A stretch of DNA of 64,000 nt from Bacteroidales bacterium (GCA_035342335.1 DAOQWY010000004.1:123813-187812), one strand, 5' to 3'; counted from the stretch's first letter, positions 2,134-63,160 are shown. Notes: generated by a model not told the origin, from the sequence alone. Program-made: numbers and translations.

Positions 2134-3507
2134 TTACCTTGCTAACATATCCGAAGGTGTAAAAACGTGGAATCCGGGAAGCGCTTTACCGGGTCTTTCT
2201 TTAAGAAATAACGCTTTAATGACAGATTTGCTTTCAACAAACGGGAATGCCGCAATTTTACTGTCAATTGAAGAGGCCAGTTCCCCGACAGGTACCTTAT
2301 CCGACCATTTCACTTCCCCGACAAGCAAGCTGCTTCTATCCAGAGATTCTGATAAAAGGTCAATTTCCATCGCTTTTTTATCTGTTCCGGTACCCCACCA
2401 GCGGGAAGCCGGATTAAATTTTTTACCGTCGATGACCATCTCATGTATCATTTTTCTGCATAAATCTTCCCATAAACCCGACAGATATGAATTATACTTC
2501 GCATCAATCCCCTGCCAGACCTCTTCGATCATACCAGATTCGAGCCTGCTTTTATTGGGGATAAGGAAATTGAAGTAGAAATTCAGGAAGGGATCATCAA
2601 TCTTATAAAGGCTTCGTTTGGCGGATCTCCCAGATTCTCCGAAGGGTACTTCACGACGAATGTATCCCTGGTTGATAAGGAATCCAAAAAGACGCGACAG
2701 CTGAGTCACCGGTTTTCCTAATCTTCTGGCAATTTCGGATGGTTTGTGCACACCGGAGCCGATCAGGCTCATTACGGAAAAAGCCTGCACGGATGTCCTC
2801 ATCTCATCGGAAAATAGACGTTCAGGTTCCTCGTAAAGGATACCGTTTTGATCGAGTATGCTTTTTTTTACAGCTTCTGTAAAATCCTTGTATTCTTTCC
2901 TGATTTCCCAGTATCTGGGGACGCCACCCCAGGCACCATATTCCATGACAGCTTCTTCCGGACGGAGTGACAAGAAAGTATGCATCTCTTTTATTCCCAT
3001 GGGTTTTACCCGGATGATTTCATCACATCGTCCATAGAGTGGTGAGCTGCTGTCCAGGACCATACTGTACATCATTTGCTGGGAGGATCCGCAGAGGATC
3101 AGATGAAAATTCCTCTTATCAGATTCTTCTGTTATTTTTTGTAAAATTGAAGGCAACTCCGGGCTGTTTTTAACCAGGTAGGGAAATTCGTCAATACAAA
3201 TAATTGTCCTTGATTTCAGGACAGAATTCAGACTATGGAACAAACTTTCCCAGTCGGGATAGACAGGTCTGGAAAAACCGGGTGCAAGGGCATCCACCTG
3301 TTTTGCAAGCGCCAGGATCTGGAGGGGTGGTTCTCTTAAATCCGCAGAAAAATATAGGGCATGAGGGGGAAGCACCCGATGCAACAATGTCGACTTTCCA
3401 CACCTGCGCCGGCCATAGACAACGATCAGCTGTGGTTTTTCCTTAACGAAAGCATTCTGCAGCCTTTCAATTTCCTTCTCTCTGTTGACAAACATATGAC
3501 TATTCAT
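2134..3507 (-). CDS. AAA-type ATPase of the COG1672 family (archaeal-ATPase-like plus DUF234) with a wHTH and a C-terminal PD-(D/E)xK-like nuclease motif
   Basis: Walker A is YGRRRCGKSTLL and Walker B is IICIDEFPY. The wHTH is SEIARRLGKPVTQLSRLFGFLINQGYI. The DUF234-like stretch is YKIDDPFLNFYFNFL, followed by EIDLL...LVGEVKW. The track start at 3528 is a TTG inside a TATTTTTG -7 box, and the first ATG is at 3507 (MNSHMFVNREKE). Confidence 0.85.
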   Translation of the reverse strand: MNSHMFVNREKEIERLQNAFVKEKPQLIVVYGRRRCGKSTLLHRVLPPHALYFSADLREPPLQILALAKQVDALAPGFSRPVYPDWESLFHSLNSVLKSRTIICIDEFPYLVKNSPELPSILQKITEESDKRNFHLILCGSSQQMMYSMVLDSSSPLYGRCDEIIRVKPMGIKEMHTFLSLRPEEAVMEYGAWGGVPRYWEIRKEYKDFTEAVKKSILDQNGILYEEPERLFSDEMRTSVQAFSVMSLIGSGVHKPSEIARRLGKPVTQLSRLFGFLINQGYIRREVPFGESGRSAKRSLYKIDDPFLNFYFNFLIPNKSRLESGMIEEVWQGIDAKYNSYLSGLWEDLCRKMIHEMVIDGKKFNPASRWWGTGTDKKAMEIDLLSESLDRSSLLVGEVKWSDKVPVGELASSIDSKIAAFPFVESKSVIKALFLKERPGKALPGFHVFTPSDMLAR

Positions 3508-3525
3508 TTTGAAAATTATGTTTGA

Positions 3526-3533
3526 CAAAAATA
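3526..3533 (-). promoter_or_regulatory. Candidate Bacteroidota -7 box (TATTTTTG) for the ATPase gene
   Basis: The complement of CAAAAATA matches the TAnnTTTG consensus and lies about 19 nt upstream of the ATG at 3507. Confidence 0.4.
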
Positions 3534-3597: not shown

Positions 3598-3662
3598 AAA
3601 TCCCAAATCCCAAGGTCCAAAATCCAAACAAATCCCAAATTCCAGGATCCAAATTACAAACA
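3598..3662 (-). repeat. Inverted GGGATTTG-type word tract (CCAAATCC on the plus strand) upstream of the ATPase
   Basis: The sequence is AAATCCCAAATCCCAAGGTCCAAAATCCAAACAAATCCCAAATTCCAGGATCCAAATTACAAACA. A short counterpart, CAAATCCTAAATTCCAAG, lies at 1718..1735. Confidence 0.75.
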
Positions 3663-3664
3663 CT

Positions 3665-3961
3665 GTGATTGCCCTATTTAAATCCTGATTCATTCCCCCT
3701 TCCCTTGCCCATAGGGCATATCGTATTGTAGCAGGTAGGTGACCGAATTCCCTTTCCTTGCCCGCAGGGCATATAGTATTGTAGCATCATGGCATGAAAT
3801 GATTCAATACCCCGTAGGGGTTCCAGATTTATGTTTATCCCCTACGGGGAATAAAATCATTGGATGATCCCATTGAGCTACAATTCTTTAACCGCTACGC
3901 GGTAAAATACAAATAAAGGAGTACAGATCAGTGTTTTACTGCATACAGTTTATTTGATAAG
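3665..3961 (+). repeat. Direct repeat DR-2 (297 nt), partner of 1739..2035
   Basis: See DR-1. The core 3789..3961 is identical to 1863..2035. Confidence 0.9.
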
Positions 3962-4058
3962 GTGATTTGTTTGTGATTTGGATCTTGTGATATGTTTGGA
4001 ATTTGGATGTTGGGATTTGGGATTTGCCTGGATTATGGTGCCTGGGATTTGGGATTTG
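3962..4058 (+). repeat. GGGATTTG/GGAATTTG word tract following DR-2
   Basis: The sequence is GTGATTTGTTTGTGATTTGGATCTTGTGATATGTTTGGAATTTGGATGTTGGGATTTGGGATTTG...CTGGGATTTGGGATTTG. GC hairpins follow at 4072..4093 and 4107..4123 (CCCCGCA-GAA-TGCGGGG). Confidence 0.8.
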
Positions 4059-4226
4059 CGAAAAGCTTGAAGATCCCGCCTTGCGGTGGGATCTTTGTGG
4101 AGTTTACCCCGCAGAATGCGGGGCTTCGACTTGCTGCTTGAAGCTATTAACCTGCAACATGTACCTTGCAACATGCAACACACGTCATAAAATCAACTTT
4201 CCCGCGTTAATAATCCAAATAAACCC

Positions 4227-7465: not shown

Positions 7466-8105
7466 CATGGATATCATCAAAGTCATGATCGTGGATGATC
7501 ACATCATCTTTCGTAAAGGATTGCGGACCATACTCAATGAGATCGATGAACTGAAGGTGGTGGCGGAGGCTTCCAACGGCGTCGAACTGATGGATGCCCT
7601 GAAAAAAATCCAGACCGATGTTATCTTCATGGACATCCGGATGCCCATGATGGATGGGATCGAGGCCACTAAAAAAGTCACTGCGAAATACCCGGATGTC
7701 AAAATAATCGCACTGACCATGTTCGAGGAAGTGAGTTACTTCAACGAGATGATCGAGGCCGGAGCCGCTGGGTTCCTGCTGAAAAAGACCACAACGAAGG
7801 AACTCAAAACGGCCATTGATGCCGTTCTCCGCGACGATACCTACTTTTCTGAGGAATTTATCGCTTCTGCCAGCAAGTATCAGAGGATCAAGCCCAAAGG
7901 ACCCGATGTCAGGCTCTCCGACCGCGAGTTGGAGGTGCTTGAACTGATCTGCAAAGGAAACTCCAATGCAGAGATTGCCAAATTATTAGGGGTCAGCCAG
8001 CGAACCGTGGACGGACACCGTGCCCACCTCTTCGAAAAAACCGGTGCCAGAAATGCCCCCAACCTGGTGCTCTATGCGGTGAAACATGGACTGATCAGGA
8101 CCTGA
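7458..8105 (+). CDS. NarL/LuxR-family response regulator (REC plus GerE HTH)
   Basis: The REC domain has phosphoacceptor context DVIFMDIRMP. The HTH is LSDRELEVLELICKGNSNAEIAKLLGVSQRTVDGHR. The start overlaps the kinase stop by 8 nt. Confidence 0.93.
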   Translation: MPDMDIIKVMIVDDHIIFRKGLRTILNEIDELKVVAEASNGVELMDALKKIQTDVIFMDIRMPMMDGIEATKKVTAKYPDVKIIALTMFEEVSYFNEMIEAGAAGFLLKKTTTKELKTAIDAVLRDDTYFSEEFIASASKYQRIKPKGPDVRLSDRELEVLELICKGNSNAEIAKLLGVSQRTVDGHRAHLFEKTGARNAPNLVLYAVKHGLIRT

Positions 8106-8417
8106 TGGCACATCACAGACCCCGGAACGGATAAATCCCAGCCAGATTCCGGGTGAGTGACGGAGTTTTACACTGTCTCCGGACGAAAATCCAATGTGTA
8201 AAACACCTATACCTCAAAAAATAATCTTTTTTTTTAATTTTTTTCTGTTTGCCGGTGGGTCATTTCCAATGCTTTCAGTCGAAGGATCCCGATGGAGTTC
8301 AGTTCTGCTTAGTGACTTTAAGTATTTGAAAAACAATATTATAACTATTGAAATATAGGTGTTTCCACCTGTTTTCCGCGTGCACCTTCCACTCTTGCAG
8401 GGTCTGTGTTCCCGCTC

Positions 8418-8474: not shown

Positions 8475-8987
8475 ATGGAAGCACAGAAAATTTTAATTGT
8501 AGATGACGACGTTGATGTGATCAATGTCATCACGACTATCCTCGAAAATGAAGGATATGAAGTTATTTCAGCCTTTGATAAGGATGAGGGGCTGCAGCTG
8601 GCCCGTGATAAAAAGCCTGATCTGGCTATTCTTGATGTGATGATGACAACCCATTATGAGGGATTTGAGATGGCCAAGGAATTGAGTGAAGATCGCACCT
8701 TCCGGACGATGCCCGTATTGATGCAAACTTCCATCGATGTTCTGGTAACCACCAAGGAAAGTGTCAGGGAAATGGCCCGGGAGTTCAGAGCCGATCCTCA
8801 TTACAGTGAATTGCAGGTGATCCTGGTCCGGGATGTGGTTTCAGGTAACTGCGGGGTGGATTACCTTACGGAAGACGGACGCTCGATCTGGTTACCGGTG
8901 AACGGTTTTCTCAGAAAACCCGTGGATGCCCGGAAATTGCTCTACGAGATCAAAGCTCAGCTTGAGAAGCAGGCAGCACATTCTTAA
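8475..8987 (+). CDS. Stand-alone receiver (REC) protein with an insertion of about 50 aa and no output domain
   Basis: The sequence shows ILIVDDDVDV...KPDLAILDVMM...MQTS...FLRKP. It is a paralogue of 15245..15631. Confidence 0.85.
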   Translation: MEAQKILIVDDDVDVINVITTILENEGYEVISAFDKDEGLQLARDKKPDLAILDVMMTTHYEGFEMAKELSEDRTFRTMPVLMQTSIDVLVTTKESVREMAREFRADPHYSELQVILVRDVVSGNCGVDYLTEDGRSIWLPVNGFLRKPVDARKLLYEIKAQLEKQAAHS

Positions 8988-18228: not shown

Positions 18229-18337
18229 TAGTCGGCGGTCAGCAGCGGAGCGAAGCGACGTCCCGACGGAAGCCAGGATCAGCAGCCAGCAATTTGACAA
18301 TTTGACAATTTAACAATTTATCATATACGATTTTAAG
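18229..18337 (+). repeat. Upstream cassette copy E2 filling the hydG-hydF spacer
   Basis: It has blocks TAGTCGGCGG, GTCCCGACG, GGATCAGCAGCCAGCA, then CAATTTGACAATTTGACAATTTAACAATTTATCA (18290..18323). That 34-mer is the exact reverse complement of 63002..63035. The ATG follows 14 nt later. Confidence 0.8.
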
Positions 18338-19558
18338 ATGTCCAAAGGCATAGAGACCAAACCCCATATCGGGATCTTCGGACGTAGAAATACCGGAAAG
18401 AGCTCCTTTATCAACAGGCTGGTGAACCAGCAGGTTGCCATCGTCTCGGAACAGGCGGGAACCACCACCGATCCCGTCAGAAAGTCCATCGAGATCTTTG
18501 GGATTGGTCCGGCCATCGTCATCGACACGGCCGGTATCGACGATGTGGGTGAACTGGGAGCGATGAGGATCAACAGGACGATGGAAGTGCTCAGAACAGT
18601 TGATTGCGGCGTACTGCTGATCACCGGTAACGGGTTCGGCGAAGAGGAAGAAAGACTGATCCAGGGATTCAGGGAATGGGACATACCCTATCTGATTGTC
18701 CATAACAAAGAAGATCTGGAGCAGCTTCGCCCTGAAACGGAGAAAGCCCTGAGAGAAGGGTACGGATCGACGGTGATCAGGTTCAGTGCGGTTTTGAGCA
18801 ATGATCTGCAGGAAGTGACCGAAGCCCTGAAGGATATCATTCCTGACACGGCCTACCGGTACGCAACGTTGATCGGCGATATTGTTCACAAAGACGACTA
18901 CGTCGTTCTCATCACACCCATCGATCAGGAAGCGCCCGAGGGCCGAATGATCCTGCCGCAGATCATGGTGATCAGGGATGTGCTGGATAATGATGGCATC
19001 AACATCGTACTAAAGGAAAACCAGGTTACGTCATTCTTTCAGACATCGGGTATCCGACCATCACTGGTCATCACCGACAGCCAGGTATTTCACAAGGTCA
19101 AAGACCTGGTGCCGGAAACGGTTCCCCTGACCAGCTTCAGTATCGTTCTGGCACGCAGAAAGGGTAATTTTGAGCATTATCTCAAAGGTACACCCCATCT
19201 TGAAAACCTAAACAATGGCGACAGGGTACTGATCCTGGAATCGTGCACGCACCAGGTGAATTGCGACGACATTGGCCGGAATAAGCTGCCCCGCTGGATC
19301 CGCGAATTCACCGGAAAATCGGTTGAAGTGGATGTTGTGGCAGGACTTGATCCGGTTCCCGCAGATATCCGTGCCTACAGCCTGGTCATCCAGTGCGGAG
19401 GTTGCATGATCACCCGCAAACAGCTTCAAAACCGCCTGAAATTCGCCATCAATGCCGGGATACCGGTATCCAACTACGGACTCGCCATTGCCTATATGAA
19501 TGGCATATTTGAAAGGGTGACCGCTCCTTTTATGACAAGCGATGGATCCAATCAATGA
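18338..19558 (+). CDS. hydF: [FeFe]-hydrogenase maturase GTPase HydF
   Basis: 406 aa. The P-loop is GRRNTGKSS, DTAG is present, and the C-terminal cluster motifs are ESCTH...QCGGC. Confidence 0.93.
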   Translation: MSKGIETKPHIGIFGRRNTGKSSFINRLVNQQVAIVSEQAGTTTDPVRKSIEIFGIGPAIVIDTAGIDDVGELGAMRINRTMEVLRTVDCGVLLITGNGFGEEEERLIQGFREWDIPYLIVHNKEDLEQLRPETEKALREGYGSTVIRFSAVLSNDLQEVTEALKDIIPDTAYRYATLIGDIVHKDDYVVLITPIDQEAPEGRMILPQIMVIRDVLDNDGINIVLKENQVTSFFQTSGIRPSLVITDSQVFHKVKDLVPETVPLTSFSIVLARRKGNFEHYLKGTPHLENLNNGDRVLILESCTHQVNCDDIGRNKLPRWIREFTGKSVEVDVVAGLDPVPADIRAYSLVIQCGGCMITRKQLQNRLKFAINAGIPVSNYGLAIAYMNGIFERVTAPFMTSDGSNQ

Positions 19559-22372: not shown

Positions 22373-22402
22373 CGGGTCTACGGGTCTACGGGTCTACGGG
22401 TC
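22373..22402 (+). repeat. Tandem octamer array (CGGGTCTA, 3.75 copies)
   Basis: The sequence is CGGGTCTACGGGTCTACGGGTCTACGGGTC, in the spacer between convergent gene ends. Confidence 0.9.
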
Positions 22403-22440
22403 TTCTTTCTACTGATAGGGAGGATCGTGATTTGATTAAG

Positions 22441-22478
22441 TGGAATTTGTCTGGAATTTGGATCCTGGAATTTGGAAC
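22441..22478 (+). repeat. GGAATTTG word tract
   Basis: The sequence is TGGAATTTGTCTGGAATTTGGATCCTGGAATTTGGAAC, the same word family as 2050..2110 and 3962..4058. Confidence 0.8.
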
Positions 22479-22495
22479 TTTCCGGTCCCTGGCCT

Positions 22496-45186: not shown

Positions 45187-46524
45187 ATGACCATCCTGAA
45201 ACAAAAGTTACGCGAAAAGATTGAAGAATGGAGACCCAGGGTATCCCGCCTGGTTCATGAACATGCCGATGTTGTTGTCGACCAGGTTACGGTCGGACAG
45301 ATCTTCGGAGGAATGAGGGGACTCAAATGCCTGGTGACCGATATTTCCTATCTGGATCCCTTGGAAGGGATCCGGTACCGTGGATTTACGCTGCCCGAGG
45401 TATTCGAAAAACTCCCAAGACCCAAAGGAGCAGAATCCCCTTATGTGGAGGGACTGATCTATCTTTTACTGATTGGTGAAATCCCAACGGAAGAACAGGT
45501 GGAGGACGTGATCGATGAATTTCACAAACGCAGGATCCTGCCCCGCTATGTCTACGACGTCATTGATCAGTTTCCCTGCTGCAGCCATCCGATGACCATT
45601 TTTTCATCAGCGGTGATGACCCTGCAGCGCGAATCGTTTTTTGCAAAAAAGTATGCTGCCGGGTTGAACAAGACCCTCTACTGGGAACCAACCTTTGAGG
45701 ATGCGCTGAATTTGATTGCCAAATTACCGGAAATCGCTACGTACATCTATGCAAAACTCTACCGTGACGGAAAGCGTGTCCAATCGAATCCGGCACTGGA
45801 CCTTGGCGGCAACTTCGCGCACATGATGGGCATTCCGAAGCCCTACGATGATGTTGCCCGTATGCATTTCATCATTCATTCCGACCATGAGAGCGGTAAC
45901 GTCAGTGCGCACACCGGTCACCTGGTGGCCAGCACGCTCGCCGACGTTTACCTTGGTGTATCCGCCATGATCAACGGTCTTGCAGGTCCGCTGCATGGCC
46001 TGGCCAATCAGGAAGTCCTTCGCTGGCTTCACGAGCTGATGGACAGGATGGATCATAAGATACCCACGGAGGACGAGATGAAGCAATATGTTTGGGATAC
46101 CCTGAATGCAGGGATGGTGATCCCTGGGTATGGGCACGCTGTTTTACGGAAGACAGATCCGAGGTTCCTCCTGCAACGCGAGTTTGCCCTGAAGCATATG
46201 GCCGATGATCCCATCTTCAAATACGTTGACCTTCTCTACCGGGTTGCCCCTCCAATCCTGATCGAGCACGGTAAGGCGAAAAATCCCTGGCCGAACGTTG
46301 ACGCCCATTCCGGAGCCCTTCAGTGGTACTATGGGGTTAGGGAGTATGATTTTTATACGGTCCTGTTCGGTATCGGGCGGGCCATTGGGATCTGCGCCAA
46401 TGTGATCTGGGATCGTGCGCTGATGTATCCCCTGGAACGTCCTAAATCCGTTACGACGGCCATGATCGAGGAAATCGTGGCGAAAGCCAAAAAGAAAGAG
46501 CCAGAGCAGGAGGTTGCCTCCTGA
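45187..46524 (+). CDS. gltA: Citrate synthase
   Basis: 445 aa with HSDHESGNVSAHT, PGYGHAVLRKTDPR and NVDAHSG. Confidence 0.92.
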   Translation: MTILKQKLREKIEEWRPRVSRLVHEHADVVVDQVTVGQIFGGMRGLKCLVTDISYLDPLEGIRYRGFTLPEVFEKLPRPKGAESPYVEGLIYLLLIGEIPTEEQVEDVIDEFHKRRILPRYVYDVIDQFPCCSHPMTIFSSAVMTLQRESFFAKKYAAGLNKTLYWEPTFEDALNLIAKLPEIATYIYAKLYRDGKRVQSNPALDLGGNFAHMMGIPKPYDDVARMHFIIHSDHESGNVSAHTGHLVASTLADVYLGVSAMINGLAGPLHGLANQEVLRWLHELMDRMDHKIPTEDEMKQYVWDTLNAGMVIPGYGHAVLRKTDPRFLLQREFALKHMADDPIFKYVDLLYRVAPPILIEHGKAKNPWPNVDAHSGALQWYYGVREYDFYTVLFGIGRAIGICANVIWDRALMYPLERPKSVTTAMIEEIVAKAKKKEPEQEVAS

Positions 46525-46556
46525 CCGCATGGGGCTTGTGAGCTATTTAATGTATC

Positions 46557-46706
46557 GGGGTGTGTTAAAATACATTTTTTTAAACACGAAGGTACTCAAA
46601 GTTCTTCACAAAGGAACACTAAGTTTCTGATATCCAATAATAATACTTGGTGTCCCTTCGTGTAAACCTTCGTGTTCCTTCGTGGTTAAATACTTATGGC
46701 ACACCC
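46557..46706 (+). repeat. Palindromic intergenic element A, bounded by terminal inverted repeats (about 150 nt)
   Basis: It is an imperfect hairpin built from CACGAAGG/CCTTCGTG words. It is roughly 85-90 percent identical by eye to the reverse complement of 49808..49960. It lies between the convergent 3' ends of gltA and acpH. Confidence 0.85.
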
Positions 46707-46733
46707 GTATATTTTACGGTTCTTTCCCCTAAA

Positions 46734-47351
46734 TCAAGGTCCAGGACTTGTACCCGAGTCAATGCCAGTGATCTTTTCGATCTCTTGCCGCGCATAAAGG
46801 ATCAGCTCCGGGAAAAACTCCCGGAATTCATCCCGGAAGGAGTCATAATGGTCGCGAAGATCGCTGACAGCTTTTTCCATTCCCGACCGGTAGGGTGTCC
46901 GGATGGCCATACCCCGGAGGCTTTGCTGGAGGAAATCCAGGTTTGCGTACGAAGCCAGCCAGTCGTCTTCCATCATATACGGAAGAATTCGCTTTGTGCG
47001 AGCGGGTAAAATATCAAAATTCTGCATCAGGATCGCATAGCTTCGAGCCGTAAATTCCGTCAGGTCCTGGAAAGAGTACGCCGACCAGCCTGTGGCCAGA
47101 AAATGGTCATAGAACATATCCGCCACTACACCGGCATATTTATGCTGGTTTCTGTACAGCCTTCTTTTGCTCCTGAGGTATACCGGATGATGGTCCGTAA
47201 ACGAATCGATCCGGCGATGCAGCTGAATGCCCTGCACAATTTCCTCCCTGTAATGATCAAATGCATTTCCGGGAATGTGGTCAGCAATGAAATTCCCTAC
47301 CAGGATATCCGGACGTTCTCCGGATAAGAATGCATGGGCCAGGAAATTCAT
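46734..47351 (-). CDS. acpH: Acyl carrier protein phosphodiesterase
   Basis: 205 aa with the N-terminus MNFLAHAFLSGERPDILVGNFIADHI, typical of AcpH. Confidence 0.85.
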   Translation of the reverse strand: MNFLAHAFLSGERPDILVGNFIADHIPGNAFDHYREEIVQGIQLHRRIDSFTDHHPVYLRSKRRLYRNQHKYAGVVADMFYDHFLATGWSAYSFQDLTEFTARSYAILMQNFDILPARTKRILPYMMEDDWLASYANLDFLQQSLRGMAIRTPYRSGMEKAVSDLRDHYDSFRDEFREFFPELILYARQEIEKITGIDSGTSPGP

Positions 47352-47456
47352 CGTGATTTTTTAAGTGATGAGGGACAAAATTACTTATAATTGGTATAAA
47401 TAAGCTTCCCGGCCGGAAAAGAAAAAGCAGTCCTGGTTCGACTGAAGGATTTTTTT

Positions 47457-47464
47457 TAAATTTG
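47457..47464 (+). promoter_or_regulatory. Candidate -7 box (TAAATTTG) for iorAB
   Basis: It matches TAnnTTTG and lies about 44 nt upstream of the ATG at 47508. Confidence 0.35.
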
Positions 47465-47507
47465 TCTGAAACCATTCCACTTGTTGATTTTTTAACTTTT
47501 TTTTATC

Positions 47508-49136
47508 ATGGATCAATGGGTTTTATTGGGTGATGAGGCGATTGCACAGGGAGCCATCGATGCTGGCCTGACCGGCATTTATGCTTATCCCGGCACCCCT
47601 TCCACCGAGATAACCGAATACGTTGAACGCTCCCGGGAGGCTCGCCAGCGGCAGATCAAGGCCACCTGGTGTGCCAATGAGAAAACAGCCATGGAATGCG
47701 CCATAGGCCTATCCTATGCGGGAAAACGGGGCATGGCCTGCATGAAGCATGTCGGCCTGAATGTAGCTGCGGACCCTTTCATGAACTCAGCCATCACCGG
47801 AGCCAATGGGGGCCTTTTGGTGGTCAGCGCTGATGATCCGTCGATGCATTCTTCACAGAATGAGCAGGATTCGCGCTTTTATGGAAAATTTGCCATGTTG
47901 CCCATTCTTGAACCCGGCAATCAGCAGGAAGCATACGACATGGTCCATGAAGGGTTCAGCCTATCTGAACGGTTGAAACTTCCTGTTCTGATCCGCATCA
48001 CTACACGACTTGCCCATTCCCGCGCCGTGGTGAAGCGCAGCCAGAAGGTCGTGGGTCAAAATCAGATCCGGTTGCCCGATAATCCGATGCAATACATTCT
48101 TTTGCCCGTCAGCGCCCGGAAACGTTATAAAGAGTTGCTTGCCAAGCAGGAAAAGGTGATCAGCGAGGCAGAAGGATCCAGGTTCAACCACTGGACCGAC
48201 GGTCCTGACCGATCCCTGGGGATCATTGCAGCCGGCATTGCCTTGAATTATCTTCTTGAGAACTATGATGACCGAAAGTGTCCTCATCCGGTGGTGAAGA
48301 TCGGGCAGTATCCCATGCCACGGACAATGATGGAAAAACTTTACAGTTCCTGCGAACGGATCCTCGTTCTGGAGGATGGTTATCCCTTTATCGAAGAACT
48401 TTTGAGGGGGTACCTCAATGACGGCAAGAAGATCGTGGGCAGGATGGATGGTACGCTCCCGATGGAAGGTGAGCTGAATCCCGGCAAGGTTGCCAGGGCC
48501 CTTGGACTGCCGTTGCAACCGGGATTGCCTGTGCCTGAAGGGATTGTTTCGCGTCCGCCGTCGCTCTGCAAGGGATGCCCTCATATTTTTTCGTTCAATG
48601 CCCTGAATGAAGCGGTGAGTTCGTTTTCGAAGGGCCGGGTTTTCTCCGATATCGGATGTTATTCGCTGGGTGCCCTGGCACCCTATCAGGCCATCAATTC
48701 GCTGGTCGACATGGGTGCTTCCATCACCATGGCCAAAGGCGCCTCGGATGCCGGCTTGGTCCCTTCCATTGCCGTCATTGGGGATTCCACATTCATCCAC
48801 TCAGGCATAACCGGCCTGGTGGATGCAGTGAACAGCCGGTCACCCATCACCGTGGTGATCCTGGATAACCAGACCACAGCCATGACAGGAGGCCAGCCTT
48901 CCCTGGCTTCGCCCAGGATTGAAACCATATGTGAGGGAACTGGCGTTGAAAAGGACCATATCCATATCCTGAATCCCATTCCCAAAAACCACGAGACGAA
49001 TCTGAACATCATACGGCAGGAGCTCGAATATAAAGGTGTTTCAGTGATCATACCCCGGCGGGAGTGCATCCAGACTGCCGCCAGGAAATTAAAGCAGGCC
49101 AGGAGTCAGAAGCCGGTCAGAGAGGAGATCGCATGA
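47508..49136 (+). CDS. iorA: Indolepyruvate:ferredoxin oxidoreductase alpha subunit (TPP enzyme)
   Basis: 542 aa with YPGTPSTEI, CKGCPH and the TPP-binding stretch GDSTFIHSG...LDNQTTAMTGGQ. Confidence 0.88.
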   Translation: MDQWVLLGDEAIAQGAIDAGLTGIYAYPGTPSTEITEYVERSREARQRQIKATWCANEKTAMECAIGLSYAGKRGMACMKHVGLNVAADPFMNSAITGANGGLLVVSADDPSMHSSQNEQDSRFYGKFAMLPILEPGNQQEAYDMVHEGFSLSERLKLPVLIRITTRLAHSRAVVKRSQKVVGQNQIRLPDNPMQYILLPVSARKRYKELLAKQEKVISEAEGSRFNHWTDGPDRSLGIIAAGIALNYLLENYDDRKCPHPVVKIGQYPMPRTMMEKLYSSCERILVLEDGYPFIEELLRGYLNDGKKIVGRMDGTLPMEGELNPGKVARALGLPLQPGLPVPEGIVSRPPSLCKGCPHIFSFNALNEAVSSFSKGRVFSDIGCYSLGALAPYQAINSLVDMGASITMAKGASDAGLVPSIAVIGDSTFIHSGITGLVDAVNSRSPITVVILDNQTTAMTGGQPSLASPRIETICEGTGVEKDHIHILNPIPKNHETNLNIIRQELEYKGVSVIIPRRECIQTAARKLKQARSQKPVREEIA

Positions 49137-49726
49137 AAAAAGATATCATCCTTGCAGGCGTTGGAGGGCAGGGAGTCCTTTCCATTTCTGCCCTCATTGG
49201 GTTGGCCGCAATGAAAGCCGGTCTGTTTCTCAAACAGGCTGAGGTACACGGGATGAGCCAGCGTGGCGGAGAAGTCCACTCTCACCTGCGTATGTCCAAT
49301 ACCGAAATAGCTTCCGACCTGATCCCTGAGGGGAAGGCCGATCTGATCCTATCGGTCGAACCCATGGAAGGACTGCGTTACCTTCCCATGCTGTCAGGCG
49401 ATGGTTGGCTGGTTACCAATACCCAGCCCTACGTCAACATTTCCAACTACCCTGATCTGGAAATGATCCTCAGGGAAATTGAAAAAGTACCCCGCCATCT
49501 GGCGCTCAATGCTGAGGAGATGGCTAAGGACCTGGGCTCCACCAGAATGATGAACACCATGATGCTCGGCGCTTCCGTACCTTTTTTGATGATCCCTTTC
49601 GAAAAATTCGGTGAAGCCATCGCTGATTTTTTTGCCTCTAAAGGCCAGGAATTGATCGATCTTAACCTGGCTGCCTTACGCAAAGGATATGATTTTGCAG
49701 TGAAATTCACTGATCCTTTAATCTAA
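49133..49726 (+). CDS. iorB: Indolepyruvate:ferredoxin oxidoreductase beta subunit
   Basis: It starts MKKDIILAGVGGQGVL...HGMSQRGG. It has an ATGA overlap with iorA, and the track ORF starts earlier at 49064. Confidence 0.88.
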   Translation: MKKDIILAGVGGQGVLSISALIGLAAMKAGLFLKQAEVHGMSQRGGEVHSHLRMSNTEIASDLIPEGKADLILSVEPMEGLRYLPMLSGDGWLVTNTQPYVNISNYPDLEMILREIEKVPRHLALNAEEMAKDLGSTRMMNTMMLGASVPFLMIPFEKFGEAIADFFASKGQELIDLNLAALRKGYDFAVKFTDPLI

Positions 49727-49807
49727 TTCCGTTACTTTTGCGACGGCGGACGGAAATAAGACTGTACCCCGGTAATGAGTTCTTTTAATTTTACCCTACC
49801 CCTGCAC

Positions 49808-49960
49808 GGGGGTGTGTCATAAGTACTTAACCACTAAGGAACACGAAGGTTTTCACAAAGGGACACAAAGTAATATTACTGATTATCAATCCCTTAGTGT
49901 TCCTTCGTGAAGCACTTTGAGTACCTTTGTGTTTAAAGTATGTATTTTGACACAACCTCG
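49808..49960 (-). repeat. Palindromic intergenic element B, an inverted copy of element A
   Basis: Its reverse complement aligns with 46557..46706 end to end. Its right terminus TTTTGACACAACCTCG matches the terminal repeat of element C. Confidence 0.85.
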
Positions 49961-49995
49961 ACGGGGGAGGGGTATTAATATCTGCTGGTCACTGC

Positions 49996-51246
49996 ATGAA
50001 GAGAGTACTTGAAATCGTCATACTGCTGCTGATATCGCTGGCAATTATTTTTCTTATTCGTTATTTCATACGGGATGAATACATGGAGGCTCCCCCTGCT
50101 GATCCCCCGCCTCCTCAGATGAAGTATGGGATCGTGATCGATTCTTTCAACCTGTTTAACCGTACCGTTTTGAAAGATCAGAACCTGTCGGATATTCTGA
50201 CATATTATGGTGTTGATTATCAGACAGTTGATAATATCATCAGGCTCAGTCAGCCTGTCTTTGACCTGAGAAAGCTGCGGACGGGGAATAGTTATACGGT
50301 CATGTGCGGTGACGATGCTGATCAACAGGCACATTACCTGGTCTATGAGGATTCCCCTGTTTCCTATGTCGTTTACCGGCTGACCGATTCGCTCTGCGTG
50401 TACAGGAACGTGAAGGATATCAAGCGAATCGTGACGACCACCCACGGATCGATCAGTTCCTCCCTGTGGAATGCCATGATCGGGAGCGGTGCCGACCCTG
50501 CCCTGGCCATGGAGCTTTCGGATATTTATGCCTGGACGGTCGACTTTTTTGGGATACAAAAGGGGGATACCTACGATGTGCTATACGAGCAGCTGATTGC
50601 GGAAGGGGACACGATCGGCATCGGCAAGGTGCTGGCTGCCTGCCTGAACAATGACGGCCATCCGTTTTATGCTTTCCATTTCGTTCAGGACAGCGTGGCG
50701 GGGTATTACGATGAGCAGGCCAGGAACCTGCGGCGGGCCTTCTTAAAAGCACCGCTGGAGTACCGGAGGATCAGTTCCAAATTCTCGCACAGCCGTTATC
50801 ATCCGGTACTGAAGATCCGGCGCCCTCATCACGGGGTGGATTATGCGGCACCTGTCGGAACCCCTGTCCGGACCATCGGCGACGGGGTGGTGGTTCAGAT
50901 GTCGTACCAGAAAGGGGGAGGAGGGAGAATGATCAAAATAAGGCATAATACCACTTATACCACGATTTACATGCACCTTCACGGGTATGCCAAAGGCATG
51001 AGGGAGGGACTTCGTGTCAGGCAGGGGGACGTGATCGGGTATGTTGGCTCCTCGGGTTTATCCACCGGACCGCACCTGGATTTCCGGGTGTATAAAAATG
51101 GCACTCCCATCGATCCCCTGAAGATGGAATCCCCCCCGGCCGATCCGGTGAAACCGGTTTACAGGCCACAGTTCGACAGCCTAAGGATGGAATACACCAG
51201 GCAGCTTACACAAAAAAATCAGGGGATAACAAATGTTACCCCCTGA
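49996..51246 (+). CDS. M23-family metallopeptidase (LytM-type), membrane anchored
   Basis: 416 aa with an N-terminal TM helix. It has HHGVDYAAPVGTPV and GSSGLSTGPHLDFRV. Confidence 0.9.
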   Translation: MKRVLEIVILLLISLAIIFLIRYFIRDEYMEAPPADPPPPQMKYGIVIDSFNLFNRTVLKDQNLSDILTYYGVDYQTVDNIIRLSQPVFDLRKLRTGNSYTVMCGDDADQQAHYLVYEDSPVSYVVYRLTDSLCVYRNVKDIKRIVTTTHGSISSSLWNAMIGSGADPALAMELSDIYAWTVDFFGIQKGDTYDVLYEQLIAEGDTIGIGKVLAACLNNDGHPFYAFHFVQDSVAGYYDEQARNLRRAFLKAPLEYRRISSKFSHSRYHPVLKIRRPHHGVDYAAPVGTPVRTIGDGVVVQMSYQKGGGGRMIKIRHNTTYTTIYMHLHGYAKGMREGLRVRQGDVIGYVGSSGLSTGPHLDFRVYKNGTPIDPLKMESPPADPVKPVYRPQFDSLRMEYTRQLTQKNQGITNVTP

Positions 51247-51261
51247 TGAAGGATTTTTGAC

Positions 51262-51402
51262 TTTACGAGGTTGTGTCAAAAGGGATTATTATAATGAAAA
51301 CCGCAAAGACGCAAAGACGCAAAGTCCTCATAATCAATATTTTTTTTCTTAGCGGCTTCGCGGCTTTGCGGTGTAAAATGACTTTTGACACAACCTCGTA
51401 AA
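51262..51402. repeat. Palindromic intergenic element C with perfect 21-bp terminal inverted repeats
   Basis: TTTACGAGGTTGTGTCAAAAG (51262..51282) is the exact reverse complement of 51382..51402. The core has CGCAAAGA x3 (51302..51324) facing GCGGCTTCGCGGCTTTGCGG. It lies between convergent gene 3' ends. Confidence 0.9.
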
Positions 51403-51412
51403 ACAGTTACTC

Positions 51413-52846
51413 TTACGGAACCAATTCTGTTCCCCCAGCCCACCAAACCTTGTAGTTATAGACGAAGTTCTCGTCTCCGAGATACTGTGAAGGCACGTTA
51501 TCGGGATTCGATGACACTTCGCTCAGTGCAAACGGGAACCTGTTGACGAAACCTTTTGTGGCGTTGTTTGGATTATGCATCGTCGGTATGCCTGTACGGC
51601 GGTAGTCGTTGTAGGCCTCGATCGCTTCAAATTCATAGAACGCAATGTATTTCTGCGTGATGAGTTCCTTCAGTTCATTTCCCGGTATCCTGGGTGCCAC
51701 TTCGTTGAGGATGTAATCCTCTGCCCCTTCAACACCGTGGAAGGCAAAGTTGGCTGCAATGGCCTCGCCAAACGAATAGGCCCAGGATGCATCTCCCTTC
51801 ATCAATTTCGCTTCGGCTTCAATGAACTTCAGCTCGTGATAGGTCATCAGCGGGATGGGAGCTGTACGTCCGTTTTCAGTGATCAGCGATGTTGAGTACG
51901 TCCCACCCTGGTTTTCTACGGCTGTGCCATTGGGTGCCGGATTGTAAGCATCCTCGATCTGAGTGAAATAGGCAGCGATACGCGGGTCGTTCCGTTCATT
52001 CATCAGGTTGAACAATGTTTGTCCAGCGGAGAGATGGGTCCTGTCGTTGAGGAACTGGTACCAGGGATTTTCGCCTGATGCAGTGGCCTCAAAGGCATCG
52101 AACAGGAAGTTATCATCACTGCTTTGAAAGCCATTGGCAAGATAATTCAGGGCTTCTGTTGCAGCAGCAGCGCCATTGATCTTTGACAGGCGCAGGGCAT
52201 AACGTGCTTTCAGCGACCAGGCTGCTTTGATCCAGGCGTTTTGATCACCGCCGTAGATGTAATCGGCAGAAGGGATCTTGTTCACCGTTTTGCCCAGGTT
52301 CACAATGGCATCATCCAGCATGGCCTGTATCTTGGGATACAGTTCGGATTGCTTGTCGTATTTCGGCTGAAGGATTTCAGCGCCCATGAGGGCCTCTGTC
52401 CAGGGCACTTCACCCCACATGTCGGTGGCCACTGCCAGGTTATAGGCGGTCAGTACCTGGGCAATCCCTCTTGCCCAGTAGTTTTCAGGTTCCGTGCCAT
52501 CCGGAGCGGTTTTGGTCAGAATGTCTTTCAGCTCATTCATAACATCATACAGACCGTTCCAGTTGTTGTTCATTAGCGAGGCATCGTTCTGGGCCTGGCG
52601 TTTGTCAGCTACGGCTGACTGGGCCCAGGTGCCGGCACTGTGTTCGATATACACGGTGGCATACCAGGCGATATCACAGCCGGTGGTTTCAAAGGCTGTT
52701 TTCAGGATGGCATCCGGAAGAATACTCCCGGCTTCCATATTCAGTGCATCGTTTCGCTCCATGTCGATTTCATCCATCTTTTCATCGCTGCAGGCGAAAA
52801 GACTGAGACCAAGAGCGGTAACCAGCAATATTTTTAGTGTTTTCAT
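51413..52846 (-). CDS. SusD/RagB-family outer-membrane lipoprotein (pair 1)
   Basis: 477 aa. It has the lipoprotein signal LGLSLFAC and lies immediately downstream of a SusC-like gene. Confidence 0.88.
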   Translation of the reverse strand: MKTLKILLVTALGLSLFACSDEKMDEIDMERNDALNMEAGSILPDAILKTAFETTGCDIAWYATVYIEHSAGTWAQSAVADKRQAQNDASLMNNNWNGLYDVMNELKDILTKTAPDGTEPENYWARGIAQVLTAYNLAVATDMWGEVPWTEALMGAEILQPKYDKQSELYPKIQAMLDDAIVNLGKTVNKIPSADYIYGGDQNAWIKAAWSLKARYALRLSKINGAAAATEALNYLANGFQSSDDNFLFDAFEATASGENPWYQFLNDRTHLSAGQTLFNLMNERNDPRIAAYFTQIEDAYNPAPNGTAVENQGGTYSTSLITENGRTAPIPLMTYHELKFIEAEAKLMKGDASWAYSFGEAIAANFAFHGVEGAEDYILNEVAPRIPGNELKELITQKYIAFYEFEAIEAYNDYRRTGIPTMHNPNNATKGFVNRFPFALSEVSSNPDNVPSQYLGDENFVYNYKVWWAGGTELVP

Positions 52847-61474: not shown

Positions 61475-63001
61475 TTATTCCAGGCTTCCAATGACCTTTT
61501 CAACTTCTTCCAGGATCTCACAGGATTGGACCAGTGCTTTCATGGCGTTATGGTCAGGATAGAGTGGCCGGTCGACATCCAGGAAGGCCACGTGCTTGCG
61601 GATCACCTCTTTGGCCCTGGTGGTTCCCGTTCCAAAGGTGTACTCTCTGAAGTCCAAAGCCTGCGCAGCGGCCATCAGTTCGATGCCCAGGATGCCATAG
61701 GCATTGTCGAGGATCTGGAAGTTCTTCAGGGCGGTGTTCATCCCCATCGAAACAAAGTCCTCCTGGTCGGCAGCGGCGGGTATGGATTGAATGCAGGCTG
61801 GCATGGAAAGGATGCGTTGTTCCACGATCTGCATATCGGCCGTGTACTGGCTGAGCATCAAGCCCGAGAACATGCCGGCTCCCTTGGTCAGGAATGCGGG
61901 CAGGCCTACGCTCAGGGCCGGATTGTTCAGGCGGTTCATCCTTCGTTCCGACAGAACGCTGACCATGGTGATGGCTGCTCCTGCCATGTCCATGGGTAGT
62001 GCCACCGGGCTACCCTGGAAATTGGCCCCGGAAAGCTGCAGGTTCTCTTCCGGGAAAAAGATCGGGTTATCCCCCACGCCATTGAGCTCGGTCTCCACCT
62101 GGCTGCGTGCATAGGCCAGCGCATCGTGGGCCGCACCGATCACCTGCGGGGTGGAACGCATCGAATAAGCATCCTGCACCTTGCATTTGATCCGGTTTTC
62201 GGCCAGATCTCCGTGCTCGGCCACCTTGCGAATGGCGCGGGCCGACCGGATGGCCCCGGAGAATCCCCTTGCTTCGTGCAGCTTGGGCAGATAAGGCTTC
62301 ATATTGGCCTTCAGGGCCTCCAGCGACATGGCTGCCGCAATCTCAGCCTGTTTCAGCCAGCGGTTGGCATCATAAAGGAAGATGGCGCTCATGGAGGTCA
62401 GCAGGTTGGAACCATTGATGGTGGCCAGACCGTCACGCGCTTTCAGTCCGGGTACGGGGATGCCGGCCCGGTCTAACGCTTCTTTGCCTTCCAGCAGTTC
62501 ACCCTTGTAGTATGCTTTGCCCTCACCCATCATCAGCAGGGCGATCTGCGACATCGGGGCCAGGTCGCCGCAGGCACCCACCGAACCTTTCTGGCAAACA
62601 TGAGGTGTTACGCCCTTGTTGAGCATCTCCACCAGTGTCTGCGTGATCTCAAGGCGACACCCTGAATGCCCCTTGGCATGAACGTTTGCCCTCGACAGCA
62701 TGGCTGCCCTGACATGCTCCAGCGGAGCCGGGTCGCCAATGCCGGCCGCATGGTTGTAGATCAGGTAGCGCTGGAACTGGCTTACCTGTTCGTCGGTCAG
62801 GACCACCTCCGAAAACTCTCCGATGCCGGTGTTGATCCCGTACATGATCTCGCCAGCCTCGAGCTTTCGCTCTACCATGTTCCTGCATTTAATGATACGT
62901 TCTTTTGCTTCAGGATGAAGCTCCACTTTTTGACCCAGCCGGGCCACGTTGATAATGTCTTCTATGGTTAGTTTATTGCCTGTGATATGATATGGTTTCA
63001 T
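61475..63001 (-). CDS. hutH: Histidine ammonia-lyase homologue (HAL/PAL family) with an Ala-Cys-Gly triad at the MIO position
   Basis: 508 aa with YGINTGIGEF, NHAAGIG, GSVGACGDLAPMS, ATINGS, VQDAYSMRSTPQV and DQEDFVSMG. Confidence 0.85.
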   Translation of the reverse strand: MKPYHITGNKLTIEDIINVARLGQKVELHPEAKERIIKCRNMVERKLEAGEIMYGINTGIGEFSEVVLTDEQVSQFQRYLIYNHAAGIGDPAPLEHVRAAMLSRANVHAKGHSGCRLEITQTLVEMLNKGVTPHVCQKGSVGACGDLAPMSQIALLMMGEGKAYYKGELLEGKEALDRAGIPVPGLKARDGLATINGSNLLTSMSAIFLYDANRWLKQAEIAAAMSLEALKANMKPYLPKLHEARGFSGAIRSARAIRKVAEHGDLAENRIKCKVQDAYSMRSTPQVIGAAHDALAYARSQVETELNGVGDNPIFFPEENLQLSGANFQGSPVALPMDMAGAAITMVSVLSERRMNRLNNPALSVGLPAFLTKGAGMFSGLMLSQYTADMQIVEQRILSMPACIQSIPAAADQEDFVSMGMNTALKNFQILDNAYGILGIELMAAAQALDFREYTFGTGTTRAKEVIRKHVAFLDVDRPLYPDHNAMKALVQSCEILEEVEKVIGSLE

Positions 63002-63160
63002 TGATAAATTGTTAAATTGTCAAATTGTCAAATTGTTAGTCCTTGTTCTATTGTTCTATTGCTGACTGCCGATCCCTCGTCACTGAGTTCCTCGGGACAG
63101 GCTGCCGACTGGCTACCGGCTACCGGCTACCGGCTACCGGCTACTGGCTACCGGCTACCG
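63002..63160 (-). repeat. Upstream cassette copy E3 abutting the hutH start codon, expanded by word arrays
   Basis: 63002..63035 is the exact reverse complement of 18290..18323. It then has (TAGAACAA)x2, GGATCGGCAGTCAGCA, GTCCCGAGG, CAGTCGGCAGC, and the heptamer array GCTACCG x7 (63111..63160, one GCTACTG variant) preceded by the degenerate copy GCTGCCG (63101..63107). Confidence 0.85.

Follow-up and report, generated by a model that had tools for sequence, protein, structure and literature searches.

The window analysed here, a 64,000-nt stretch of DNA from a Bacteroidales bacterium, carries three palindromic elements, A, B and C, which are a real and clearly non-random feature. We consider it reasonably probable that they are non-autonomous mobile repeats of the kind represented by MITEs, ERIC and Correia elements, which insert without target duplication and would be moved in trans by an enzyme reading their conserved 16-bp ends, called clamps below. 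Comparison of orthologous spacers shows A, B and C to be insertions by all appearances, with copies gained and lost quickly between close relatives. Copies of the clamp family land in intergenic DNA, often between convergent genes and frequently at the centres of short palindromes.

Structure and setting of elements A, B and C

The elements and their parts are as follows, with positions counted from the first letter of the window.

46557..46706, no strand: element A, the element of B inverted, with both clamps degenerate (GGGGTGTGTTAAAATA ... TTATGGCACACCC)
46579..46690, no strand: central word hairpin of A, 46-nt arms, 78% complementary
49808..49959, no strand: element B proper (repeat search, fold and clamp profile)
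49832..49909, no strand: central word hairpin of B, words CACTAAGG / CACGAAGG / CACAAAGG and their complements
51262..51402, no strand: element C as a whole, with its 5-nt outer stem TTTAC/GTAAA
51267..51282, plus strand: left clamp of C, GAGGTTGTGTCAAAAG (terminus profile; nhmmer E = 1.5e-4)
51382..51397, plus strand: right clamp of C, CTTTTGACACAACCTC, the exact complement of the left clamp
51300..51372, no strand: central word hairpin of C, ACCGCAAAG-ACGCAAAG-ACGCAAAG versus CTTAGCGG-CTTCGCGG-CTTTGCGGT
51218..51247, minus strand: terminator-like hairpin, context only (terminator scan: 13 pairs, tail TTTTTTTGTGT)

Element C ends in perfect 21-bp inverted repeats, TTTACGAGGTTGTGTCAAAAG at 51262–51282 and its exact complement at 51382–51402, which the repeat finder extends to 26 nt at 92%. 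Its core is an imperfect hairpin with three CGCAAAG-type words per arm (51300–51324 versus 51348–51372); the 25-nt central arms are 84% complementary and align with the word hairpins of other copies. The coordinates and sequences of these repeats and of the hairpin are as described in an earlier note on this DNA, and the related termini that it reported for A and B prove to be degenerate or perfect versions of the clamp. In B, the left clamp is degenerate (GGGGGTGTGTCATAAG, 49808–49823) and the right clamp is perfect (ATTTTGACACAACCTC, 49944–49959), its last 15 bases (49945–49959) being the exact complement of GAGGTTGTGTCAAAA. This 15-mer has three exact occurrences in the 64-kb window. The terminus profile matches only A, B and C in the 64 kb, all within 4.9 kb.

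A and B represent a single element, present in opposite orientations. Over 128 nt they are 87% complementary, a global alignment gives 84% identity, and together they form a 128-bp inverted pair around 3.1 kb. The A/B cores had been described as designs separate from that of C. In fact, the A/B cores can be aligned with the C core from end to end and their words are variants of CRCNRAG, so that they are diverged copies of one core rather than swapped modules. The idea of conserved clamps around different cores is thus borne out between lineages across the phylum, but not among A, B and C themselves.

The RNA folds of A, B and C range from −45 to −60 kcal/mol. C reaches −60 kcal/mol with z about −10 on both strands, and A and B give z from −4.4 to −7.7. 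For each element, none of 200 shuffles folded as well as the real sequence. Among ORFs of 80 aa or more, a single one touches an element (46647–47009, plus strand). It starts inside A and is taken as spurious, since nearly all of it runs opposite the ACP phosphodiesterase gene of the other strand.

The gene order is isocitrate dehydrogenase, citrate synthase, A, ACP phosphodiesterase (minus strand), the 2-oxoacid:ferredoxin oxidoreductase (POR) subunits, B, M23 peptidase, C, and the susD-like and susC-like genes (both minus strand). The gene annotation thereby agrees with the earlier placement of A and C between convergent genes: A is located between the citrate synthase and ACP phosphodiesterase genes, and C between the M23 peptidase gene and the susD-like gene, whose stop codons are 15 nt and 10 nt away, respectively. 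The genes on either side of B are in tandem; B is 81 nt downstream of the stop codon of POR gamma and 36 nt upstream of the start codon of M23.

No T-run follows A, B or C, either on inspection of the sequence or in the terminator scan, as had been noted before. The scan calls nothing on the hairpins themselves, and its sole match touching an element is a weak 5-pair site (46705–46719) at the right edge of A. The elements are therefore not canonical intrinsic terminators, and the earlier suggestion of termination hairpins is ruled out in that sense. A hairpin with a T-run is found instead at 51218–51247, where it overlaps the last codons of the M23 gene and serves the susC/susD transcript; its sequence is conserved in relatives. 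Since C is located between the susD stop codon and this canonical terminator, C is probably transcribed.

The window contains other repeats as well. Two 300-nt direct repeats (1721–2020 and 3647–3946, 92% identical) surround an ATPase_2/DUF234 gene (2134–3528, minus strand). They are bordered by GGGATTTG-type word arrays (2050–2116, 3598–3662 and 3964–4060), inverted between the two sides, and each contains several small CCCGTAGGG-type hairpins. These repeats gave no meaningful Rfam match and could be another repeat or mobile unit, or an RNA of unassigned kind. A 34-nt word array, CAATTTGACAATTTGACAATTTAACAATTTATCA, is present at 18290–18323 and, as a perfect inverted copy 44.7 kb apart, at 63002–63035. 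The two copies lie directly upstream of the start codons of a hydF-like gene at 18338 and of the minus-strand gene 61475–63001, with a weaker copy at 1529–1561, and the array may be a shared 5′ regulatory element. Intergenic tandem word arrays are also found at 63108–63160 and 22380–22483 (ACCGGCT about seven times, the 8-mer ACGGGTCT three times, and GGAATTTGG words), and word repeats in intergenic DNA seem to be a common trait of the source genome. An imperfect palindrome of about 164 nt (8201–8364; AAACACCTATACCTC...TATAGGTGTTT; 35-nt arms, 71% complementary) carries no clamp motif; one gene ends before it, at 8105, and a response-regulator gene starts after it, at 8475.

The clamp family in Bacteroidota

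The clamp is a 16-bp sequence, G(G/A)GGTTGTGTCAAAAG...CTTTTGACACAACC(C/T)C, present once at each end of an element, and the two are mutually complementary. The corresponding terminus profile reads G-(G/A)-G-GTTGTGTCAAAA-G-(G/T)-(G/C). Pairs with both clamps exact were found at 37 loci, 6 in genomes and 31 in metagenomes. In the genome search, both 13-mers had to occur exactly, 95–125 nt apart, among 185,579 species representatives; the 31 metagenome loci came from a slightly looser pattern. The invariance of the clamp is partly imposed, since the searches themselves required it. Genomes with a perfect copy belong to Phocaeicola massiliensis, two Saprospiraceae, two Lewinellaceae and one uncultured Bacteroidetes, and the family is thus sparse, with 6 of the 185,579 species representatives.

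The clamp is the sole part conserved across distant Bacteroidota, and the cores differ between lineages. The elements of the family are non-coding and about 125–155 bp in length. The first type of interior is that of P. massiliensis, in which two GTAG-tagged REP-like hairpins are arranged head to head; at least two copies are present in this species, at L017:5730–5877 and L017:13071–13206, separated by 7 kb and each flanked by convergent genes. The second type is a word hairpin built from words such as CGCAGAGA or CACGGAGA. The third has the central palindrome CCTnnnAGGTTTTnAAAACCTnnnAGG, and the fourth comprises the A/B and C cores of the window. The word-hairpin (Saprospiraceae-type) copies and the A/B and C copies align over their whole length, indicating homology beyond the clamp. 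In the third type, constant CCT/AGG blocks surround a 3-bp "barcode" that is always mirrored on the other arm, as seen in one alignment (A2: L006, L008, L010, L012, L015, L018, L019, L022 and L028). The three barcode pairs and others change on both sides with pairing kept, at 6 pairs in total. The mirrored barcode may reflect either pairing under selection or copying of one arm from the other.

Two side observations were made on the P. massiliensis core (L001:1277–1424 and L017:13071–13206). The stems of its two GTAG-tagged hairpins differ from each other by compensatory changes (GGGCGAG/CTCGCCC versus GGGCAGG/CCTGCCC), and one arm carries CGTGGATAA, a near match to the DnaA box.

Both arms of the elements share semi-conserved subterminal motifs, GAAAA and, about 33 nt in, CAAATTTTnATT. 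The spacers just inside the clamps differ between the two arms, do not pair and are conserved within a lineage, so that the element has an orientation and is no full palindrome. All copies are intergenic; by crude gene calls, 10 of the 21 scorable copies are located between convergent, 7 between tandem and 4 between divergent genes. In convergent spacers, the copies fill the space to within 10–35 nt of the stop codons.

We searched for a partner enzyme and for a known identity of the elements. In Rfam, the whole window gave only a tRNA at the gathering score, and nothing relevant was found in 46400–51500 at E up to 5. ORF clustering over 27 independent loci detected no protein family in three or more of them. 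No transposase is present among the 18 annotated ORFs of the window, which lie outside about 9–18 kb, or in the gene lists of the syntenic relatives, which cover about 34–64 kb of the window. The examined loci, about 1 Mb in all, hold no clamp pair of IS size, and blastn of four element types against plasmid and phage collections gave only chance low-complexity matches. A scan of viral contigs with GGGTTGTGTCAAAAG returned 50 loci, nearly all of them single chance matches inside genes. Four viral loci with clamp-like pairs 2.4 kb apart are one phage locus with collagen-like repeats and were rejected. Among the viral contigs, only L078 and L079 hold a paired variant (230 nt).

In the literature, the clamp sequence, searched in both orientations, turned up only in eukaryotic constructs without relation to it. 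Searches for Bacteroidetes MITEs yielded no more than a bulk MITE census and a REP survey, neither of which describes the clamp family, and no published description of small non-coding repeats in Bacteroidota was found in the literature search. The ends of Cas13b direct repeats, GTTG...CAAC, may resemble the clamp.

Empty sites and palindromic flanks

The spacers and flanking features used in the comparison with relatives are listed below.

Site A: spacer of 209 nt in the window, 11–29 nt in relatives
Site B: spacer of 269 nt in the window, from overlapping genes (no spacer) to 102 nt in relatives
Site C: spacer of 166 nt in the window, 67–220 nt in relatives, with other hairpins inside
46549..46733, no strand: extra DNA at site A, with 185 nt where L043, the closest relative, has an empty 22-nt spacer
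49792..49807, plus strand: left arm of the outer hairpin at site B, TACCCTACCCCTGCAC (comparison with L043)
49960..49974, plus strand: right arm of the outer hairpin at site B, GACGGGGGAGGGGTA (comparison with relatives)
L043:11250–11320, L044:11270–11360, L098:7265–7355 and L099:7270–7358: hairpins at site C in relatives

All five syntenic contigs (L043, L044, L046, L098 and L099), whose M23 peptidases are 79–84% identical to that of the window, have the same gene order without A, B and C. The terminus profile detected no clamp in about 90 kb of the DNA of the relatives. In L043, the empty site A reads TGTGAGCTATTT joined to CAAGGTCCAGG (the right flank is also given as CAAGGTCC). The right-hand 27 nt of the extra DNA in the window (TTTCCCCTAAA) may be partly ancestral, as L046 has TTTCCCCAAAA. 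Digester metagenome contigs contain copies 99% (L026) and 95% (L009 and L033) identical to C, at different loci, and the L009 locus provides a second pair of filled and empty sites, its relative L104 having a 17-nt spacer. Recent gain is favoured over repeated loss by the tight empty spacers in several relatives and by the near-identical copies at other loci. The receptor gene beside the P. massiliensis copy has nearest homologues (73–77% identical) that are not syntenic.

Two contigs end or diverge in ways that should be noted separately. L106, the contig most closely related to the L009 locus, stops 37 nt past the gene (L106:1342–1378), inside an outer hairpin arm (TTTACCCCTCCC); this contig end suggests that nested palindromes break metagenome assemblies. 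The strain-level contig L040 is 99.6% identical to the window from 47662 onward. L040:1–493 diverges totally from the window (about 47170–47661) within the POR alpha/beta gene, and the gene upstream is not the one found in the window, reflecting either a recombination breakpoint or an assembly chimera.

The flanks of the copies show no target-site duplication: no direct repeat of 2–5, 8 or 9 bp was found at any offset, the observed values being equal to those of a control in which left and right flanks of different copies were paired. The MITE-like character suggested earlier therefore holds in the small size, non-coding nature, inverted repeats, multiple copies and empty sites in relatives, but not in the target-site duplication; in the same way, the proposed comparison of orthologous spacers gave presence and absence (five relatives empty) and no duplication. 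The flanks outside G(G/A)G are instead inverted-complementary over at least 3 nt in 10 of 26 copies, versus 1.8% of mismatched-flank controls (Mann-Whitney p = 1e-5). Within one metagenome, the outer stems vary (AGAC, AAAC and TC) among copies with near-identical cores, which makes ordinary compensatory mutation unlikely as their source. The palindromic flanks may be either targets or products of insertion.

At site B, L043 has a bare palindrome, ATTACCCTGCCCC joined to GGGGAGGGGTATCAAT; in the window, B occupies the exact centre of this palindrome. Outer arms of this kind (TACCCYNCCCC-TGCAC ... AC-GGGGGAGGGGTA) are present on both sides of the L026 and L033 copies and on one side of the L009 copy, and they occupy site C in relatives with other contents. 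The nesting of B and the shared outer arms indicate that the hairpins are nested, with an outer C4TC4 hairpin, the clamp element, and a word or REP-like core. As two taxa are compared at site B, gain and loss are indistinguishable there, and the bare palindrome in L043 could be a deletion remnant rather than a target. At site A, a short outer stem arrived together with the element.

At site C, the relatives carry a different hairpin family made of CCCCTCCCC/GGGGAGGGG words, at the positions listed above, and three of them have a further hairpin, TCCCCGCGAAAGCGGGGA, nested inside. L043 has a minimal 22-bp version of the CCCCTCCCC/GGGGAGGGG hairpin alone at site B. These hairpins look like a second, lineage-specific palindromic family that hosts clamp elements.

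Origin of the elements and comparison with known systems

In the mobile-repeat reading that we favour, the clamp would be the binding site of a putative transposase or recombinase encoded elsewhere in the genome and acting in trans. Taken together, the absence of target duplication and the palindromic flanks suggest that insertion is blunt or guided by structure, for example into the centre of a hairpin or cruciform or into single-stranded DNA, and does not proceed by the staggered cut of a DDE transposase. An inserted element would then be carried in mRNA 3′ regions and fold into a long hairpin, and any effects on RNA stability or read-through would be secondary. Several points stand against this reading: the target-site duplication, a defining feature of MITEs, is absent, no autonomous element or partner enzyme was found at the loci and in the collections searched, the bare palindrome at site B may be a deletion remnant, the family is sparse, and the invariance of the clamp partly reflects the search patterns.

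A role of the elements as RNA 3′ hairpins is plausible from their predicted folds and positions. In its strong form, this alternative holds that the host has selected the hairpins to block exonucleases, to stop convergent read-through or to be cut by RNase III, with their spread being incidental and the clamp being a putative site at which a conserved RNA-binding protein of Bacteroidota would bind or cut. The very stable folds on both strands and the compensatory changes in the central stems are consistent with such a role, as is the location of about half of the scorable copies between convergent genes, near stop codons. So are the probable transcription of C, after the susD stop codon and before a terminator, and the constant presence of some hairpin, though of a different kind, at site C in relatives. 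However, the relatives manage with a hairpin-free site A of 11–29 nt and with overlapping genes at site B, so that the element is not needed there. No copy has a T-run behind it, 4 of the 21 scorable copies are located between divergent genes, and neither fold energy nor G-U content consistently favours one strand. The 95–99% identity at unrelated loci further argues for recent copying rather than conservation in place. We regard host selection as the origin of the elements as unlikely. The two readings are compatible, because a mobile hairpin can be co-opted by its host.

A comparably tentative idea is a form of DNA movement that has not been described, in which the clamp hairpin would be inserted bluntly into palindrome centres by an enzyme resembling HUH enzymes or tyrosine recombinases. 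Such insertion would build Russian-doll hairpins, with C4TC4 arms outside, the clamp element within them, and the word or REP-like core innermost. The enzyme would have to be specific for single strands or structures and to read a 16-bp duplex conserved across classes. As a variant of this idea, a conserved protein of the host that binds RNA or DNA may have been co-opted and dock on the clamp.

The elements might also be ordinary MITEs of a known IS family (IS256-like or IS6-like), in which the target duplications have decayed or been recombined away. IS256-like and IS6-like inverted repeats have the form G(G/A)...TGT...CAAAA, and the G(G/A)G ends with TGTGTCAAAAG resemble what we take to be the inverted repeats of IS256 and IS26/IS257. 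The subterminal motifs shared by the arms (GAAAA and CAAATTTTnATT) are of a sort common at transposon ends. Even the copies that are 95–99% identical, and hence young, carry no 5-, 8- or 9-bp duplication, however; their flanks are inverted rather than direct repeats, and neither the examined loci nor the plasmid and phage collections nor the viral contigs yielded a full-length partner. Such an origin is quite improbable. Least probable of all are immobile DNA-level sites of protein binding or recombination (invertible segments, Xer-type or attC-like sites): inverted repeats 100–125 bp apart do resemble the layout of Bacteroidales invertible promoters, and a constant stem base with a variable centre recalls the attC design, but the segment between the repeats is itself palindromic, so that inversion would change little, most copies are located at gene 3′ ends in a housekeeping setting that contains no recombinase, the boxes run in the opposite order to those of attC, and the copies are dispersed without cassette arrays.

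The favoured reading of A, B and C as mobile repeats bears on several questions. The 16-bp signature makes copies findable in any genome or metagenome by a simple pattern, and fast gain and loss between close relatives makes them a potential strain marker and a potential cause of contig breaks. Hairpins of 50–100 kcal/mol in the 3′ regions of housekeeping operons could alter mRNA decay, convergent read-through and recombination. The absence of target duplication and the palindrome-centred insertion suggest a transposition chemistry unlike that of classical MITEs. Bacteroidota dominate gut and wastewater communities, and the host Phocaeicola massiliensis DSM 17679 is cultivable, so that the enzyme and the RNA effects are open to experiment.

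Among known systems, REP sequences are defined as imperfect palindromes of 20–40 nt with a GTAG or CGTC tag at one end (PMC3733652). Like REP/BIME, the clamp elements are extragenic palindromes that favour 3′ ends and convergent spacers and make no target duplication, and the P. massiliensis core holds two GTAG-tagged hairpins. The REP/BIME assignment proposed earlier is nevertheless rejected, since the elements are 125–155 nt long and their ends read G(G/A)GGTTGTG, without a GTAG or CGTC tag; the one place with GTAG hairpins is the interior of the P. massiliensis core. REP sequences are associated with RAYT (Y1 transposase) genes; none flanked by clamp-element copies was seen at the loci examined.

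Integron attC sites have an overall length of about 60–140 nt and the boxes RYYYAAC (R″, 5′ side) ... GTTRRRY (R′, 3′ side), and they come with an IntI integrase and with cassette arrays of one orientation. The clamp elements share with them paired conserved boxes at the stem base, a variable centre and a location at gene 3′ ends. They are rejected as attC sites because the order of the clamp boxes is reversed (GTTGTGT...ACACAAC), their sequence does not match R″/R′, and the copies are dispersed, with no integrase and no cassette array. The neighbouring genes (citrate synthase, POR, M23 peptidase and susC/susD) also differ from those of attC sites in being of housekeeping type and in mixed orientation. 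An inverton, in which inverted repeats flank a promoter ahead of a regulated gene, an invertase is close by and a population contains both orientations, is rejected as well, as the interior is palindromic, 10 of the 21 scorable copies are located between convergent genes and no recombinase is nearby.

The palindrome-inserting IS elements offer a parallel for site B. IS1397 and ISKpn1 insert in REP loops, and the IS1111 group inserts in attC or REP sequences; similarly, a clamp element is located at the centre of an existing palindrome at site B, giving nested hairpins. Those IS elements are full-length and protein-coding, whereas the unit inserted here is a non-coding palindrome of 130–150 bp.

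ERIC and the Correia elements of Neisseria are, like the clamp elements, imperfect palindromes of about 125–155 bp that are non-coding, multi-copy, intergenic and probably transcribed, that fold into long hairpins and that vary by internal insertions. To our knowledge, no cognate transposase has been firmly identified for ERIC and Correia elements, as is the case here. The clamp elements have no sequence relation to either and belong to another phylum. Correia elements duplicate a TA target, whereas no duplication accompanies the clamp elements. Unlike in ERIC and Correia elements, only the 16-bp clamp is conserved, across classes of Bacteroidota, and the cores differ completely between lineages.

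MITEs differ in that the clamp elements make no target-site duplication and often have mutually inverted flanks; no parent IS was found for them in the loci and collections searched. The clamp elements resemble them in small size, terminal inverted repeats, many copies, presence or absence between relatives and lineage-specific interiors. What is unusual in the family is its conserved clamp, the absent target duplication and the nested-palindrome architecture.
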